A DNA stretch of 64,000 nucleotides from Acidimicrobiia bacterium (GCA_965216495.1 OZ244163.1:1597672-1661671); one strand, 5' to 3'; shown: positions 54,609 through 61,962, counted from the first letter of the stretch. The notes: generated from the letters alone by a model not told the origin. A program made the numbers and translations.

Positions 54609-56078
54609 TCATCCTTCCAGCCGACTCAGCAGTTCGGCAGCGTCCTCAACCTCTTCGAGCAAGTCACCCACCAATTCGGCGCTGCCTCGGAGCGGTTCCA
54701 TCATAGGAACCCTTTTCAGATGTGATTCGCCTACGTCGAAGACCAGCGAATCCCAGTTCGCGGCCACCAACGATCGGGAGAATCTCCTCACACATTCGCC
54801 CCGAAAGAAGGCGCGGGTCTGGCGAGGTGGGTCCGTTACGGCTGATTCGATCTCCTCATCCGAAAACATTCGTCGCATCGCTCCACGTTGCGCCAGCTTG
54901 TAATACAGCCCTCGTGTCGGATCGACATCGTGGTACTGGAGGTCGAGGGCTCTGATCTTGGCGGCTTCCCAAGTGAGACCTTCGCGCTCGACGAAGCCTT
55001 CGATCAGCCTCTTCTTGGCGACCCAATCCAAGGTGTCAGCGAGCTTATCCGGAGACGCTTCTAGTAGACCCAGCGTCCGCTCCCACTCATCTACCACCAG
55101 TGTCCACACGGGGTCATCGAGTTCTTTCTCGACATACTTCGTCAACCATTCCAAATACCGACTCTGGATCTCCAGAGCCGTCGCTCCCCCGCCACCTTCG
55201 AGTTCGAGTGGGCGGGTGAGTGACAAGTCGTGACTGACCTGCCAACAGGCCTCGACTGGGTCGAACAGGTCGATAGCGTCAGGAATGGCACCGTCCTCGA
55301 TCGCGGCGAGCATCAGAGAGGTGGCGCCGAGCTTCAAGAAGTTCTGGTACTCCGACAGGTTCGCATCACCAAGGATGACGTGCAGGCGGCGATACTTAGA
55401 AGGATCTCCGTGCGGCTCGTCGCGGGTATTGATGAGTGGTCGCTTGAGCGTGGTCTCCAACCCAACCTCTTCCTCGAAAAAGTCAGCGCGTTGGGTGATC
55501 TGATAGTCCACGGGATCACGATCGTTCTCCTTACCCACCTTGCCAGCACCCGTGAAAATCTGGCGGGTCACCATGAAGGTGGTAGCGAATCTGATCACAT
55601 CCCCGAAAGGAGTCTCGCGTGATAGGAGATAGTTCTCGTGGGCGCCGTAAGAGTTGCCCTTGCCGTCGGAGTTGTTCTTGTACAGCCCGAGCTGGCGGCC
55701 CGCAGCCTCGGACGCCGCCGATCCGGCGAGATGCATGACCCTCTCGCCTGCCTTGTCGTAGAGAGCGGCTTCGCGTGGATCAATAGATTCAGGACCTGAA
55801 TATTCCGGGTGAGCGTGGTCGACGTAGAGCCTTGCACCGTTGGACAAAACGGAGTTGATGACAGCGCCCTCGGGATCGACGAGACCAAAACCGTCATGCC
55901 CGAACCCTCGGGCGTCTCGACCGGGACTCTCCTCTTCATAGGACCATTGCACTTTGACCCGCGCCCCGGGATAGCTGTTAACGACCAGTGAGGAAGCAAC
56001 CGCAGGGTTGAATGCCGGATCGCCCCTGACCACGATTCCGTACTCGGTCTCGGTGCCAAGGACTTTGTGCAAGGCCAT
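54609..56078 (-). CDS. dop: Pup deamidase/depupylase
   Basis: GTETEYG, NGARLYVDHAHPEYS, GAHENY, AANWDS and EPLRG motifs. Confidence 0.96.
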   Translation of the reverse strand: MALHKVLGTETEYGIVVRGDPAFNPAVASSLVVNSYPGARVKVQWSYEEESPGRDARGFGHDGFGLVDPEGAVINSVLSNGARLYVDHAHPEYSGPESIDPREAALYDKAGERVMHLAGSAASEAAGRQLGLYKNNSDGKGNSYGAHENYLLSRETPFGDVIRFATTFMVTRQIFTGAGKVGKENDRDPVDYQITQRADFFEEEVGLETTLKRPLINTRDEPHGDPSKYRRLHVILGDANLSEYQNFLKLGATSLMLAAIEDGAIPDAIDLFDPVEACWQVSHDLSLTRPLELEGGGGATALEIQSRYLEWLTKYVEKELDDPVWTLVVDEWERTLGLLEASPDKLADTLDWVAKKRLIEGFVEREGLTWEAAKIRALDLQYHDVDPTRGLYYKLAQRGAMRRMFSDEEIESAVTDPPRQTRAFFRGECVRRFSRSLVAANWDSLVFDVGESHLKRVPMMEPLRGSAELVGDLLEEVEDAAELLSRLEG

Positions 56079-57799
56079 CAGAGGTACTGGCCGCCCGACA
56101 CCCTCTCGATCAAGCGACTCTCTTCATCGCCACCGACCAGGGTGCGGACATAGACAATCCGTTCCCCTTTCTTGCCGGAGATCTTGGCCCAGTCATCGGG
56201 GTTCGTCGTGTTGGGCAAGTCCTCGTGTTCACGGAACTCCTGCTTGATCGCTGCGATCAGGTCAGAGGTCTTGACCCCGCCCGGTTCGCCGGCGATCTGA
56301 CGCTTGATGGCGTCTTTCTTTGCTCGCCTGACGATGTTTTCGATCATGGCTCCACTAGCGAAGTCCTTGAAGTACAGAGTCTCGCGATCACCGTTGGCAT
56401 AGGTGACTTCGAGGAACTCATTCTGCGGACCGTCTGAATACATGTCCTCGACCGTTGTCTCGATCATTCGCGCAATGACGTCCGCTGGAGCGTCATCGCC
56501 GGCCTCATTGGGATCCAACGGGGTTTCGTCGCCTAGATATATCCTGAAGATCTCACGTGCAGCCTCCGGATTGGGCCGGTTGATCTTGATCTTCACATCA
56601 AGTCGTCCAGGCCGAAGGATGGCCGGGTCGATCAGATCTTCTCTGTTCGACGCTCCTATGACCACGACGTTCTTGAGGCTTTCGACACCGTCCAACTCAG
56701 AAAGGAGCTGAGGGACGATCGTGGATTCGACATCCGACGAAATGCCAGTGCCGCGTGTTCGAAAGAGTGAATCCATCTCGTCAAAGAAGACGATGACAGG
56801 TACACCTTGGTCGGACTTCTCCTTGGCTCGTTGGAAGATGAGCCGAATCTGGCGTTCGGTCTCGCCGACCCACTTGTTCAGCAGTTCGGGTCCCTTGATG
56901 TTGAGAAAGAAGGATCGGACGTCGGGATCGCCAGTTCTTTCGGATACCTTTTTGGCAAGACTGTTGGCCACAGCTTTGGCGATCAGCGTCTTGCCACATC
57001 CGGGGGGCCCGTAGAGAAGAATCCCCTTCGGCGGCTCGAGTTGATACTCGGTGAATAGGTCACGGTGGAGATAGGGCAGCTCGACAGTGTCTTTGATCTG
57101 CTCAATCTGGTCGGCAAGGCCGCCAACTTCGGAATACGTGATGTCAGGAACTTCTTCGAGAACGAGCTCCTCGACCTCAGGACGTTCCAGCTTCTCGAGA
57201 ATCAGTCCTGTCTTGACGTCGACACGGACGTAGTCTCCCGCTCGAAGATATACGTCCATCATCGCATCGGACCGTTTAAGGACCCGCTCCTCGTCGGCAT
57301 GGGCTATTACGACGATCCGTCCGTCCGTCATAACTTCTCGAACCCTGAGAACGTCTCCGGCGGGCTCGAAATGTCGGACGTCGATGATGTTGAAAGCTTC
57401 GTTCAGAAGTACTTCCTGGCCGATCTGTAGCTTCTTGACTTCGACCGAAGGCTGAGCGGATACGCGGAGTTTCCTGTTGCCTGTCAAGACGTCGACCGTC
57501 CCATCGTCGCCGACCCCAAGTACCGTTCCAAAGTTGTTTGGCGGCTGGGTTAGCTTTTCGACTTCCTCGCGAAGGACTCCAAGTTGCTCGCGCGCTTCCT
57601 CGAGAAGAGCCGACAGTTTGTCATTCTGTGTAACTGCTCGTTCAAGCCGTCCACGCACGGCGTTCAGCTCGTTTTCGAGTTCGGTAGCTCGTGTGGGGCC
57701 TTCCCTCAGGCGTCGCTGAAGAAACGAAACCTCCTCTTCGAGAGAAGAGACCACAGCTTTCAGCTTCTCAGCGTCATCCCGAAATTGTTCTTGCTCCAC
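56078..57799 (-). CDS. arc: Proteasome ATPase (ARC/Mpa)
   Basis: N-terminal coiled coil, [14 protein letters not shown] and terminal GQYL. Confidence 0.97.
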
Positions 57800-57850: not shown

Positions 57851-58654
57851 TTACTTCTCAGGGTTACTTTTCCCAGGTTTATCGGCAGTCTTCCTCATAA
57901 AAATGAGGAAGCCCGTATGGCCCACCATTCTCTGCTCTGGACGAACTGAGCGCCCATCGATGTTCCAGTCTCGGATCAGGATCTCCTTGACTTCGGGATT
58001 GGTGAAGACTCCCGCCGCACGCGCAGCCTCCACGGTTTGCTGTACCTGGGGAATAGTTGGCACATACGCGGCAATCAAGAGGCCCGCGGCTTGTGAAGAG
58101 GCCGCAGCACCGATCGGATGCCACGGCTCGGGAAGGTCGAGCACCAGTCGGTCGACTACTTCGCTCTCGAGAACCTGAGTCACATCTCCGGTCCGGAGGT
58201 CCAACTGGGGGGGCACCTGGCCAAACCAACGCCGAATGGTCTTGGTGGCGTGCTCGGCGTGGTCCTCACGTCGCTCGACACTGATCACCCGCCCGGTGTC
58301 CCCGACGGCCCTGGTGAGGGCGATAGTCAGGGCGCCTGAACCGGTTCCGGCTTCCAAGATGGTTTGCCCTGGCGCAATGTCGGCGTACACGAAGATTGGT
58401 CCAACGTCTTTCGGATACACGACCTGGGCACCGCGCTTCATGCGGATAACGAAGTCGGAAAGTCGGGGTCGAATCAGCAGCATTGAGGCACCCCCGCTGG
58501 AGTCGATCCATGTGCCATCCGGCTGACCGATCAAGTCGTCGTGAGGAACGGTGCCACGATGGAACTGGAACGTTCGACCCGCCTCGAGTTTCAGGAGGAA
58601 CTCCCGACCCTTCGAGTCGATGAGGATGGCCGGATCGCCCTCGACAAAGGGCAT
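57851..58654 (-). CDS. trmI: tRNA (adenine-58-N1)-methyltransferase
   Basis: RGAQVVYPKD, EAGTGSGAL, LDLPEPW and HTGFL motifs. Confidence 0.93.
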   Translation of the reverse strand: MPFVEGDPAILIDSKGREFLLKLEAGRTFQFHRGTVPHDDLIGQPDGTWIDSSGGASMLLIRPRLSDFVIRMKRGAQVVYPKDVGPIFVYADIAPGQTILEAGTGSGALTIALTRAVGDTGRVISVERREDHAEHATKTIRRWFGQVPPQLDLRTGDVTQVLESEVVDRLVLDLPEPWHPIGAAASSQAAGLLIAAYVPTIPQVQQTVEAARAAGVFTNPEVKEILIRDWNIDGRSVRPEQRMVGHTGFLIFMRKTADKPGKSNPEK

Positions 58655-58746
58655 CAGAATAGGGAAAGGGCGGCCACTGCCAGGCTCAGGACCATTCCAA
58701 TGACTACTACCCAGATGATGATTTGAACCAGTTTCTTGTTTTGCAT
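58654..58746 (-). CDS. 30-aa single-TM miniprotein, Prli42/DUF4044-like
   Basis: MQNKKLVQIIIWVVVIGMVLSLAVAALSLF. Its stop overlaps the trmI ATG (TGATG). Confidence 0.65.
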   Translation of the reverse strand: MQNKKLVQIIIWVVVIGMVLSLAVAALSLF

Positions 58747-58787
58747 GATGTGTTGGATCGAGTTGACTGGTTGATCACGGTAGACCA

Positions 58788-59060
58788 ATGAAACGCATCG
58801 CCAAGTTCATCATCAACAAGGCCTTCGGACCCGATCCGACCGATTCTGGGTTTGAGAGGATCATGGGAGGGGTGCGTCGCGGGGATCGTCGAGAACTCTT
58901 GATCGGGTTCGCCCTTGCTGGAATGTCCTACATGAAGCGGACCAAGCCGACCAAGGAGCTGATCTACCGCAAGAGCGTTCCTGAAGGTTCGGCTGTGGTG
59001 GTGCATCACAAGAAGCGTGGTAACCCTCACATCGAGGTCATCAAACCATCTGATTCGTAA
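58788..59060 (+). CDS. Hypothetical protein (90 aa)
   Basis: ATG ORF with GC-rich third positions, divergent from the miniprotein, and no recognised motif. Confidence 0.65.
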   Translation: MKRIAKFIINKAFGPDPTDSGFERIMGGVRRGDRRELLIGFALAGMSYMKRTKPTKELIYRKSVPEGSAVVVHHKKRGNPHIEVIKPSDS

Positions 59061-59069
59061 CCTTCCATT

Positions 59070-59121
59070 CCGTTCTGTGAGGGTTTGCGCGGCTTGAGGC
59101 CCGATCAACCCTCACAAAACG
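59070..59121. repeat. REP-like imperfect palindrome, left copy
   Basis: CGTTCTGTGAGGGTT-N21-AACCCTCACAAAACG (14/15 complementary). Confidence 0.85.
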
Positions 59122-59168
59122 AGAGCAAGGGGGTTGAAACGACACGATCTCTCCGGCACGGTCGATGG

Positions 59169-60086
59169 GTGGATCGAGAGAGGGTTCTCAAGGGAACCGC
59201 GTCTGGTCAATACGGATTGATCACGCGTCAGCAAGCACTGTTCAATGGCTACCCCGACGACGAGATTGGGCGACGGATCTCGGCCGGACGGTTGACGTCT
59301 CTGCACCCGGGTGTGTATTACACGGACTCGGTACCCCCAACCTGGCGGACAGACGTGCTTGCAGCGGTTCTCGCTGCAGGGCCATTGGCCGTTGCCTCCC
59401 ACCGGACCGCGGCGGTCTTGTACCAAATGGACGCAATCTGGGGGCGGATGGTCGAAATGACCGTCCCCTACCTCAAATCCCCGGAACCCGAAGGGGTGGT
59501 TCTTCATCGCACCAGGCGTGAGAATGACACGCCCGTTCTTGAAGGCATCCCGATCACAACTCCCGCCAAAACCCTGCTCGACGTTGCTTCGACTCTGCCG
59601 TACACGACTCTCGCGAAAGCTACCCGGTCGGCGCTCCACCTCGGCCTTGTCACGACAGATGCTCTGCTCGACACGGTCGTCAAGTTTGGCGGGCGAGGAG
59701 TGCGCGGAACCAGGAAGTACCGCCGGGTGATCGGCTGGGTTGCTGCAGACAAGTCTGGCAGCCCGGCTGAGATCGACATGGCTGAAATCATCGCCGACTC
59801 GCAGGTCCCCACCCCCGTTCAGCAGTTGAAGCTCCTGCTACCAACTGGAGACAACGCATATCCTGACTTCGCCTGGCCCGACCGCAACCGCATCATCTAG
59901 GTGGACGGGTTTGGGGTTCATGGAGACCCGGAGGTGTTTAAGCGCGACCTCGCGAGACAGAACCTATTGATGGATCTCGGTTGGGAAATCAGAAGATTCC
60001 CCGCACAACGGATCCGCGATCACCCAGACGAGGTCCGCCGAGAGGTGGTTGCCTTCGTCAACGCACCCTTCTCAACCGTTCTGTGA
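59169..60086 (+). pseudogene. AbiEi-like N-terminal + DUF559 (Vsr-like) endonuclease with an in-frame amber stop
   Basis: Q.GLITR.Q, LHPGVY, ASHRTAA, TTPAKTLLD, SGSPAE and YPDFAWP..RII*VDG..H...RD..RQN.L...GW...R. TAG at 59898-59900 and the frame continues to TGA at 60086. Confidence 0.85.
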
Positions 60087-60129
60087 GGGTTTGTCAGGCC
60101 TGGGAGCGGAAAGGCCCTCACAGAAGGGT
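60075..60129. repeat. REP-like imperfect palindrome, right copy
   Basis: ACCGTTCTGTGAGGGTTT...AGGCCCTCACAGAAGGGT. It shares the 18-mer CCGTTCTGTGAGGGTTTG with the left copy. Confidence 0.85.
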
Positions 60130-60136
60130 GAAGGAT

Positions 60137-60331
60137 TCAGACTTTATAGACCTCGACGACGGTCTTGTTGCGAGAACCGCGTCGACGGCCGAGAACGAAG
60201 GCAGCGACGATCGCCAGCGCGACAGCTCCCGCGCCGACCACCGCGGCATCTTTGGCCGACTCCTTGGTCTCGTCGACTGCTCCTGCCAACTGCAATGCCT
60301 TGGCTTCGATGTCTTCTCTACTGATCGTCAA
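60137..60331 (-). CDS. Small membrane-anchored hypothetical protein
   Basis: ISREDIEAK..., one TM segment and GRRRG...TVVEV, overlapping the upstream gene. Confidence 0.75.
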   Translation of the reverse strand: MTISREDIEAKALQLAGAVDETKESAKDAAVVGAGAVALAIVAAFVLGRRRGSRNKTVVEVYKV

Positions 60332-60620
60332 CTTGCATCCTCCATGCCACGAGTCCCACCCCGATCACCGCCACCAGGAACGCCAGGGTGCGCGAGAGGA
60401 CGACCCACCACGCGCCTTCGGGCAACAGGATTTGGAATAGATAATACGAGCCCCAGACGGCGCAGACAGCGCCGATCGCCATGAGGAGTCCGCCTCCGAC
60501 CCCTAGGCCTGCATGTTTCCCCAGCTTCTTGGCTGGCTCTACGGTCTCCTGCCGCAGGTATTCCCGCGACATGTCCACCAACTCGGTGACGATTCCCGGG
60601 ATCTCTTGCGGTTTGGCCAT
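60318..60620 (-). CDS. Two-TM protein, actinobacterial holin-X (phage holin family)-like
   Basis: ELVD...YLRQETVEP.K.LG followed by two TM helices. Confidence 0.7.
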   Translation of the reverse strand: MAKPQEIPGIVTELVDMSREYLRQETVEPAKKLGKHAGLGVGGGLLMAIGAVCAVWGSYYLFQILLPEGAWWVVLSRTLAFLVAVIGVGLVAWRMQVDDQ

Positions 60621-60684: not shown

Positions 60685-61962
60685 GTGAACCCAATTCAGT
60701 CAATGCGGTCGATGGGCCCAAGGTATTTTGCCCTCTGGGTCGGTCAGACGATCAGCCAGTTCGGCACCTATATCGCACTTCTGACGATCCCGTTGCTCGT
60801 TCTCCACATCCAGGAGGCGGCCGGCGATGAGAACACGCTGGACTTCGCTCTCGCCTACGCGGCGGAAACTGCTCCAGCCCTGCTGATCGGCTTGACCGGC
60901 GGCTTGCTGCTCGATCGGCTCCACCTTCGCCCGGTGATGATTGCCACCGATCTCCTGAGGGCATGCGCCTTCTTCTATCTTGCAGGGTCGTTCGGCTCCT
61001 ATGGCGTCGTGACGGTGTTTGTCGTTGCATTCCTCGTGGGTTCCATGACGACGTTTTTTGACAGTGCCCTGTATGCGATGATCCCTGCCCTGGTTCCCGA
61101 GAATCGGCTTTCGGACGCGAACTCCTTCGTTACCGCATCGATCCAGGCCAACTTCGCTCTCGGCCCGCTGGTGGCTGGCGTCATGGCGGCGGTGTTCGCT
61201 GGGCCCGCGGTCGGCCTCTATCTCAATGGCCTGACCTTTGTGCTCTCGGCCGTCAGCTTGCTTTGGGTGGGTCGCGTCGCCCACCACAGAGACGCCACCC
61301 AAGCAACGGGGAGCTTTTGGAGCGAGTTCTCGGCCGGGATACGTCGCATTTGGAACGAACCACGGCTGAGGGTCTCAACGATTGCCTCAGCGGTCCCCAA
61401 CTTTGTCATGGGCTGGCTGGAGGCCACCTTCGTGGTCTTGGCAATGGTGGTACTCAAGACTGAGTCTGAAACCCAGATTGGAGTGCTCTTCTTCTTCATG
61501 GGAATTGGTGGACTCGTAGGAGCCCTCGTTGCGCCGAGAGTTATCCGGGCACTCGGCCTCGGGAGAACCATGACAGTTGGTCTGGGCATTTCTGGCCTCA
61601 CCCTCTTCGCCTTCATGTTCACGACCTATGGGCCGGTGGCGATGCTCCTGCTCGCCGTCTACATGTTCTTCATCTCGGTCCTGAACATCCCGCTAGCCAC
61701 CATCCGACAGACTTGGGCCGGCGAGTCGATGTTGGGACGAGTGGTGTCCGCGGCGCGTGCGATCGGGTGGGCCACTCTTCCGATCGGTGCTCTGGTCGGG
61801 GGTTTCCTCGGGAACACCGAATCAACCTATCTGGTCGTGGCCCGACTCTTCCCGCTCATTCTCGTCGTTTCAGCCTTCTGGCTAATGACGACTGTGATTT
61901 GGAAGGACACCTTCGGTGCCGAGTACGAAACTGCTGACGTGCCCGCCGAGTCAGCTTCCTAA
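60685..61962 (+). CDS. MFS transporter (macrolide-efflux/H+ antiporter-like)
   Basis: About 12 hydrophobic segments, LW.GQ.IS.FG, G.L.DR....VMI..DLLR and LGRV. Confidence 0.9.
   Translation: MNPIQSMRSMGPRYFALWVGQTISQFGTYIALLTIPLLVLHIQEAAGDENTLDFALAYAAETAPALLIGLTGGLLLDRLHLRPVMIATDLLRACAFFYLAGSFGSYGVVTVFVVAFLVGSMTTFFDSALYAMIPALVPENRLSDANSFVTASIQANFALGPLVAGVMAAVFAGPAVGLYLNGLTFVLSAVSLLWVGRVAHHRDATQATGSFWSEFSAGIRRIWNEPRLRVSTIASAVPNFVMGWLEATFVVLAMVVLKTESETQIGVLFFFMGIGGLVGALVAPRVIRALGLGRTMTVGLGISGLTLFAFMFTTYGPVAMLLLAVYMFFISVLNIPLATIRQTWAGESMLGRVVSAARAIGWATLPIGALVGGFLGNTESTYLVVARLFPLILVVSAFWLMTTVIWKDTFGAEYETADVPAESAS

Follow-up and report, generated by a model that had tools for sequence, protein, structure and literature searches.

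Locus and flanking palindromes

A 64,000-nucleotide (nt) stretch of the genome of an Acidimicrobiia bacterium (GCA_965216495.1, OZ244163.1:1597672-1661671; hereafter the window, with positions counted from its first letter) was analysed with respect to a 1.07-kb unit made up of a single gene for an AbiEi-like protein fused to a Vsr/DUF559-type nuclease and of the two short palindromes that bound it. The unit lies between the TAA (59058-60) of a plus-strand gene of 90 amino acids (aa) and the stop at 60137 of a minus-strand gene of 64 aa. The genome of the window is designated G000, and other genomes are numbered likewise. The features of the unit and of the genes flanking it were as follows.

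58788..59060, plus strand: upstream flanking gene, 90 aa, no Pfam family, with its stop TAA 9 nt before the palindrome arm
59069..59123, no strand: left palindrome (core 59073-59119) with an ACCG/CGGT-type extension and a degraded inner stem, found by arm-pattern scan and folding
59127..59139, plus strand: AAGGGGGTTGAAA, a short motif just past the left palindrome, read by eye in left junctions
59169..60086, plus strand: pseudogene of an AbiEi-like (wHTH plus C-domain) and Vsr/DUF559 nuclease fusion, with GTG at 59169, TAG at 59898-59900 and TGA at 60084-60086
60075..60129, no strand: right palindrome (core 60079-60125), containing the last codons and the stop of the reading frame
60137..60331, minus strand: downstream flanking gene, 64 aa, no Pfam family, convergent with the cassette

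A preliminary description of this DNA had reported two palindromes with a common 18-mer and the same arm-N25-arm geometry, and both points were confirmed. The 18-mer CCGTTCTGTGAGGGTTTG occurs exactly twice in the window (59070-59087 and 60076-60093); with up to three mismatches, 0.06 matches were expected in the window, and two were reached in 0/100 shuffles. A 47-nt palindrome opens at each copy, the left core being TTCTGTGAGGG-N25-CCCTCACAAAA and the right core TTCTGTGAGGG-N25-CCCTCACAGAA, so that both can be summarised as TTCTGTGAGGG-N25-CCCTCACA(A/G)AA. The arms of each are 15 nt long and 93% complementary. The two palindromes also form a direct repeat of 64 nt at 70% identity, 1006 nt apart, with 34/47 core positions identical. 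Of the terminal inverted repeats proposed earlier, the arms were found, in copies that are direct repeats as well and not inverted only. The proposed outer pair CCTTC/GAAGG was likewise present, but it is a 5-mer that relatives do not keep; the outer flanks conserved among them read ACCG...CGGT. It had also been stated that the right palindrome holds the stop of the gene and that the unit fills the gap between convergent genes without a transposase; the TGA at 60084-60086 falls within the left arm of the right palindrome, and open reading frame (ORF) and Pfam analysis gave a single ORF between the palindromes and no transposase domain.

Folded as single-stranded DNA, the left and right palindromes gave −15.8 kcal/mol (z −4.6) and −14.8 kcal/mol (z −4.2), respectively, and 0/200 shuffles were as good. 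Both hairpins were weak compared with a perfect solo copy of the same genome (G000:C1:576800-576854), at −35.6 kcal/mol. Neither palindrome resembled a terminator site: no T-run or T-tail was present, and CGGT and similar sequences come after the hairpins. Within 58700-60400, the Rfam 15 covariance models gave 0 matches at E up to 1 and a scan for sigma-70-type promoters gave none.

Nuclease gene

Pfam assigned a weak AbiEi_4 match to the N-terminus and a DUF559/MTES_1575 match to the C-terminus of the ORF. The DUF559 score was 18.6 bits for the window fragment alone and 20.8 when read through the TAG, compared with 32.5 for orthologs and a cut-off of 20.6. Among relatives, DUF559 and MTES_1575 were matched in 27/27 and AbiEi_4 in 23/27. 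PADLOC AbiEi profiles matched residues 6-174 (E 1.5e-30), and in a profile search the C-terminal domain matched the DUF559 structure 3hrl (E 8.5e-10). An AlphaFold model of an intact ortholog (mean pLDDT 90.8) was compared with known structures using Foldseek. The first ~200 residues matched the entire AbiEi antitoxin 6y8q (E 7.7e-7, TM 0.64 on target) and also Rv2827c, and the last ~100 residues matched the homing endonuclease I-Bth0305I (3r3p, TM 0.76 on target), DUF559 3hrl and Vsr 1cw0. None of four proteins was above any family cut-off in NCBIfam. The absence of an adjacent AbiEii toxin, noted earlier, held among the neighbours: a gene for AbiEii (DUF1814) was not found beside the ORF, which is the only one between the palindromes, and the layout is the same in relatives.

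The window ORF, its break written as X, was aligned with 24 homologs of the genus and three paralogs of its own genome (28 sequences in all). The in-frame TAG at 59898-59900 corresponds to alignment position E244, a Glu of the E-x-D-G...H...D...R motif, and the preliminary description was right to place it on a motif Glu, since this residue is invariant in the other 27 sequences. The conserved nuclease motif D...E-x-D...H...D...R is thus not intact in the window ORF, which, because the TAG replaces an invariant motif Glu, is a pseudogene of the DUF559/Vsr-like family and not a working member. Contigs from two samples of one study were identical over all of 58700-60400, and these may be the source of the assembly; a 151-nt contig of a different study spans 59818-59968, TAG included, with zero differences. 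As the contigs from both studies agree, the TAG was taken to be real and not an assembly slip. The predicted truncated product, of 243 residues, would retain the AbiEi-like module. Loss of an ancestral ATG through a 2-nt insertion was considered and dropped, as the protein alignment sets GTG 59169 at the ATG of the orthologs. The window copy is a decay stage, with the nuclease killed by a GAG to TAG change and both hairpins without most of the inner stem, and the active system is therefore to be studied in relatives.

Palindromes at related loci of the genus

With an intact ortholog as query, the 22 genomes of the genus were searched, and 2-8 homologs were found in 21/22. Twenty-six loci of two related orthogroups, with 41-100% identity to the query and with the window's locus included, were examined. 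Palindromes were located by arm-pattern scan; a hairpin finder had missed degraded copies. A TTCTGTG-N33-CACAGAA palindrome was present in 26/26 loci, and where both flanks were on the contig it stood on each side (24/24), at a distance of 987-1026 nt from start to start. The outer flanks at these loci were ACCG...CGGT, and the upstream palindrome ends 50-100 nt ahead of the start codon. The cassette layout is a 47-nt hairpin, a leader of ~50 nt, one gene and the same hairpin overlapping the stop.

The outer arms of these palindromes are nearly invariant, and the inner stem varies by locus yet remains paired. Pairing was seen in 82.9% of cells, compared with 62.9% in shuffles, and double changes were found in 21/26 pairs, with a covariation score of 0.502 against 0.154 and 0/500 shuffles as high. 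Hairpin pairing is under selection, and the hairpin base is conserved. At any one locus, the left and right copies repeat each other directly, down to the asymmetric inner sequence; identity was 80% on average within a locus and 54% between loci. The pair in the window (38/55 identical) was the second lowest of 20. Distances between proteins and between palindromes co-varied (Mantel r 0.38, 0/5000 permutations as high), and two cassettes of one genome carry unlike palindromes.

Dispersed copies followed the cassettes of their own genome. In G012, 14/34 listed loci were of a TCAG type matching the copy beside its second nuclease gene, and the inner word CTACCA occurred in 19/20 non-TCAG copies and in both flanks of its first nuclease gene; in G020 the word was found in 0/20 listed loci. 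The copy pattern used for these two genomes demanded CACAGAAC on one side, and the copies listed are a subset. Flanking and dispersed copies within a genome evolve in concert.

States of the chromosomal site

The neighbours trmI, the 90-aa gene, the 64-aa gene and the holin-like gene are syntenic across the genus, with the 90-aa gene at 40-58% aa identity in relatives. The site between the 90-aa and 64-aa genes was occupied by a cassette in 13/22 genomes, including G000 with its TAG and G014 with the gene split over two frames. A single palindrome was found in 3/22 (G017, G002 and G021, the last a longer variant) and no palindrome in 5/22 (G013, G007, G018, G005 and G006). Two stop codons stand 2-13 nt apart at the site in G013, G007 and G018, and unrelated spacers of 58 and 107 nt are present in G005 and G006. 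These counts cover 21/22 genomes, all but G003. A genome of another genus (G022) had the site without a palindrome.

The flanks of G019 and G013 are 96.8% identical, and the difference between the two genomes at the site is exactly palindrome-gene-palindrome, with a 2-nt overlap. The junctions of G019 read TGAACCGT/TCTGTG...CACAGAACG/GTGGTCAG (the solidus marking the boundary) and the G013 sequence reads TGAACCGTGGTCAG. The boundaries of the cassette fall 1-3 nt beyond the conserved arms. A second site was found beside a uricase-like gene, where 11/13 cassettes of the sister orthogroup are located at one place; G000 has neither gene there and carries a solo palindrome (C1:440315-440361). Three interconvertible states of the site, namely empty, solo hairpin and hairpin-gene-hairpin, are thus seen.

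The solo palindrome at the second site (G000:C1:440296-440370) has a left inner half, AATTCCGG, like the stem of the sister family and a right half like the type of G000 itself. As its halves resemble different types, it may be a chimera from conversion between subfamilies.

Palindrome families and paralogs in the genome of the window

The genome of the window (2.33 Mb) contains seven copies of the strict palindrome pattern and ~10 with looser arms, several of them half-degraded, and 0-1 copies of the reversed pattern. Family searches and tblastn gave exactly four nuclease genes of this kind, 24-32% identical pairwise. The three intact paralogs (G000:C1:35193-36134, 631713-632630 and 1392952-1393869; loci L009-L011) are each adjoined by a different palindrome. 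Palindrome families were defined by de novo clustering of 15-mers with >=4 occurrences, as 11-mers and 13-mers were swamped by coding-sequence words, and six interspersed palindromic families were obtained. The matrix of four genes by six families was strictly diagonal, with one family within 250 nt of each gene and the other five absent, against a chance expectation of <=0.011 copies per gene-family pair:

631-kb gene: family A only, on both sides
1393-kb gene: family B only, with 3 and 2 copies on its sides
35-kb gene: family D only, at its stop
window gene: family F only

The stop codon falls inside the first arm of the downstream palindrome in 3/4 genes. Family A has ~32 loci, family B ~19-26 loci, with tandem arrays of 71-nt period either side of its gene, and family D, a 48-nt palindrome, 17 loci. 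That each nuclease lineage is tied to its own dispersed hairpin family, as RAYTs are to REP/REPIN, is supported by these data.

Of the two other families, C is a composite of three small palindromes (~65 nt, 19-24 loci, for example at G000:C1 172709, 1887400 and 2221769), and one of its copies occupies the position where the relative G003 has a nuclease cassette. Examples of family E are at G000:C1 209958 and 1134461.

Turnover and copy number

Cassette interiors were 54-65% identical in DNA regardless of flank identity (72-91%; Spearman r 0.22). In the closest pair (G010/G019), synonymous divergence (dS) was 0.10-0.44 for the flanking genes and 2.2 for the nuclease. Over six pairs, nuclease dS was 1.65-2.2, and the ratio of non-synonymous to synonymous divergence (dN/dS) was 0.13-0.31, from which we conclude that the nuclease protein is kept by selection. 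Saturated nuclease dS beside flanks of dS 0.1-0.4 means that the cassette alleles are far older than the divergence of the host genomes. This argues for replacement of cassettes at fixed sites; the old alleles at one site could either have been replaced from outside or have been kept as ancient polymorphism. Each genome carries one cassette copy per orthogroup, at conserved sites.

Palindrome copies numbered 0-35 per genome of the genus, with controls at <=1. The dispersed copies, 10-35 per genome, stand after stop codons between genes and not at promoters. Another repeat of ~55-60 nt (L061:11179-11240, G019:C15) had >50 matches in each of G013 and G010, and its presence differs between genomes that are 96% identical.

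Neighbouring genes and further sequence observations

Other genes near the unit were as follows.

56078-57799, minus strand: neighbour gene
57851-58654, minus strand: neighbour gene
60318-60620, minus strand: holin-X-like membrane protein gene (PF07332, Pfam match)
60685-61962, plus strand: neighbour gene

From a look at the sequence we take these to be ordinary actinobacterial neighbours, including a proteasome-associated AAA ATPase, a TrmI-like methyltransferase and an MFS-type transporter. The counterpart of AAGGGGGTTGAAA was GGGGTTG in the six orthologous cassettes compared (left junctions of L020-L028), and at a guess the motif is a candidate expression signal. The right-arm word of the palindrome, AACCCTCACA, also occurs at 59022-59031, inside the end of the 90-aa gene and 44 nt before the left palindrome, which may be chance.

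Occurrence beyond the genus

Of 151 genomes sampled across the phylum, 56 were matched by a profile of the family at E up to 1e-20, frequently with several copies each; if the six matching genomes flagged as unpublished are left out, the tally is 50/145. In its 3′ flank (L103:11217-11465), the DUF559 gene ycjD of Escherichia coli K-12 has GC-rich inverted repeats, the 25-nt arms of which are 80% complementary, and a stretch of 39 nt that duplicates the 3′ coding end of ycjD at 90% identity. The ycjD start is overlapped by a perfect inverted repeat of 17 nt.

Discussion

The locus is probably a decaying copy of a palindrome-bounded nuclease cassette that belongs to a RAYT-like partnership between nucleases and repeats. 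The partnership itself, in which gene and palindrome family form one evolving unit, is nearly certain. The preliminary description had proposed such a system by analogy with RAYT transposases, and it is supported by the repeat family, the paralogs and the site alleles, the enzymatic link between nuclease and palindrome being inferred. What it anticipated elsewhere in the genome and in relatives was also borne out, namely solo copies (~10 family copies), paralogs with palindrome families of their own (the diagonal matrix), an empty single-hairpin allele (three genomes, with palindrome-free alleles in others) and co-variation of protein and repeat.

The closest known counterpart of the nuclease-hairpin partnership is found in the REP/REPIN and RAYT (TnpA-REP, HUH Y1) systems, both components being unrelated. 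These systems, also called REPtrons (PMC3116915, PMC3337134, PMC5581495, bioRxiv 10.1101/2021.07.10.451892), share with the cassettes a single-copy enzyme gene per lineage flanked by its own dispersed extragenic palindrome, several enzyme lineages in one genome, each with its own repeat family located between genes, and a repeat family that appears to shrink upon loss of the enzyme. Unlike in REPtrons, the enzyme of the cassette is, by Pfam and fold, an AbiEi-like module with a Vsr-like PD-(D/E)xK nuclease. It is not a HUH tyrosine transposase, so covalent strand transfer is not available to it. The copies on either side of the gene are moreover direct repeats, the families are small (8-35 copies), and cassette alleles appear to be replaced at fixed sites, whereas RAYTs are described as mostly vertically inherited. 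With homing endonuclease genes (I-Bth0305I, PDB 3r3p) the cassettes share the nuclease fold, occupied and precisely empty alleles, divergent alleles at one site and a cycle of gain, decay (TAG in G000, split frames in G014) and loss. They differ in being intergenic between convergent genes and not in an intron, intein or host gene, in having at their ends hairpin repeats of which solo copies stand at many other places, and in being present in one copy per genome despite many potential targets.

The first ~200 residues match a two-domain AbiEi of the AbiE type IV toxin-antitoxin system in profile and fold (6y8q; Rv2827c, 1zel), and AbiEi antitoxins bind inverted repeats according to PMC3985639 and PMC7319586. 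In the cassette, a nuclease domain is fused in place of an AbiEii nucleotidyltransferase partner, and the inverted repeats are found on both sides of the gene and dispersed through the genome. The C-terminal domain is homologous to DUF559 proteins (E. coli YcjD; Neisseria gonorrhoeae NGO0050, 3hrl) and to Vsr. Vsr endonuclease repairs T:G mismatches. DUF559 proteins such as YcjD and NGO0050 are ~100-150 residues long and consist of the nuclease domain only, unlike the cassette fusion. No published DUF559 function was found in the literature searched, as far as its text was available. Integron attC sites and the subterminal hairpins of IS200/IS605 are defined by structure: their outer boxes are conserved and the inner stem varies. 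The hairpins at both ends of the cassette, on the same strand, are like these, and the cassette differs from integrons and IS200/IS605 in having neither a tyrosine recombinase nor a HUH transposase.

That the nuclease acts on the hairpins is likely. The AbiEi-like module would recognise the conserved hairpin base (CCGTTCTGTG / CACAGAACGG), probably in an extruded or single-stranded form, and a nick or cut would be made at this base by the Vsr-like domain. Repair copying from another palindrome or from a flanked cassette would homogenise the repeat family, and a broken solo hairpin repaired from a hairpin-gene-hairpin template would have the gene copied in, by which the observed direct-repeat layout would be reproduced exactly. 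This homing-like copying step is plausible, with the balance leaning somewhat against it. Recombination between the direct flanking copies, left with right, would remove the gene and leave one hairpin. In G000, the GAG to TAG change has killed the nuclease, the flanking hairpins have decayed, and only ~10 family copies are left.

Several observations weigh against this reading. That this protein binds the palindrome and cuts it is an inference. A hydrolytic PD-(D/E)xK nuclease cannot alone join DNA, so that spread would have to rely on host repair or replication. One cassette per lineage per genome excludes frequent homing within a genome. Nor do the solo copies move much: two of those in G019 have counterparts at identical positions in G013 (4% apart), one of them with 7/47 changes that improve pairing. 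At 10% divergence, in G010, both sites are still occupied, by a decayed palindrome and by one that belongs to a different subtype. No excision or deletion joint at the palindromes was seen in contigs of four runs, contigs being prone to drop rare forms. Copy number followed the presence of an intact related gene only as a trend, with medians of 24 where there was one (15 genomes) and of 10 where there was none (seven genomes; one-sided Mann-Whitney p = 0.06, the genomes being kin and not independent). Two genomes were exceptions: in G013 no related nuclease was found despite 24 copies, and G002, with 35 copies, has only a broken gene. In G000, no copy of family C or E adjoins a nuclease gene. 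Outside the genus, the best locus of each of 29 genomes was tested for a repeat common to both flanks, with 168 mismatched flank pairs as the null; upstream and downstream flanks shared a repeat above every mismatched pair in only 9/29 loci. In most of the nine the repeat is placed as in the window, ahead of the start codon by ~40-110 nt and again over the stop. The 20/29 loci without a flank repeat above the null include all five from unpublished genomes (L081, L084, L086, L088 and L089). With 9/29 positive, palindrome association is common, not universal, for this protein family.

The cassette could instead move in the manner of an integron cassette. A circle of gene plus one hairpin would recombine in Campbell fashion with a chromosomal solo hairpin, as at attC, to give the direct hairpin-gene-hairpin order, and left-by-right excision would restore the solo hairpin; the nuclease would only start the reaction, or the work would fall to a host recombinase. 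Direct flanking repeats with the same asymmetric inner sequence, a constant cassette length, solo and cassette alleles at the same site and again at a second site, cassettes of very different sequence at one site, and a hairpin of fixed length with conserved outer boxes and a variable paired inner stem, as in attC sites, all fit it. There is, however, no recombinase in or beside the cassette, and neither circles nor excision joints turned up among the contigs, to which the search was confined. The precise palindrome-free allele of G013 would need a second step, and dispersed copies far outnumbering the cassettes would be left unexplained. We regard this explanation as unlikely.

Less likely still is an ordinary autoregulated defence or toxin-antitoxin-like gene, in which the upstream palindrome would be the operator of the AbiEi-like module and the downstream one would end transcription, with the dispersed copies being scars of old cassettes or decoy sites and the turnover reflecting an arms race with phages and not selfish spread. 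AbiEi proteins do autoregulate through inverted repeats in their own promoters, according to PMC7319586 and PMC3985639. The distance from the upstream palindrome to the start codon is 50-100 nt, the AbiEi profiles of a defence library (PADLOC) match strongly, and presence/absence and allele turnover are typical of defence genes. Neither AbiEii nor another partner gene is present, however, and the 10-35 dispersed copies per genome follow stop codons and not promoters. The ~18 near-identical dispersed copies of G012 that match its cassette flanks would, as scars, need many recent insertions; the double changes keep an inner stem paired for which a duplex operator has no need; and the palindromes have no T-tail. 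That the palindromes are chance likenesses or generic terminators of convergent genes is hardly credible. Both hairpins do stand directly after the stop codons of convergent genes, but they have no T-run, the shared 18-mer is beyond chance expectation, the family is genome-wide and genus-wide with controls at <=1, and hairpins are gained and lost along with the gene.

The nuclease-repeat partnership may have a wider bearing. It is an almost even question whether the missing enzymes behind the REP-like hairpin repeats of Actinomycetota are the AbiEi-DUF559 nucleases, and perhaps DUF559 proteins at large, which would make a second, independent nuclease-palindrome partnership in which a hydrolytic Vsr-like nuclease nicks an extruded hairpin base and host repair copies hairpins and gene. 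No description of a link between DUF559/Vsr and palindromic repeats was found in the partly available literature covered, subscription journals lying outside it. DUF559 is a large nuclease-fold family, to which the partnership, if true, would give a function. It would also bear on the origin of short palindromic repeats outside REP-RAYT and would explain small hairpin families outside proteobacteria. The partnership predicts binding and nicking at the hairpin base and homogenisation of the repeats. The genus offers a natural experiment, with four nuclease lineages and four private repeat families in one genome and, across its members, a site where cassettes are found intact, decayed or only just lost. 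If the reading is true, the cassettes, with their three site states (empty, solo and cassette), would form a new class of elements, whether mobile or domesticated. Their nucleases would be a new enzyme class in the biology of intragenomic repeats and would also provide sequence-programmable nucleases that recognise hairpins.

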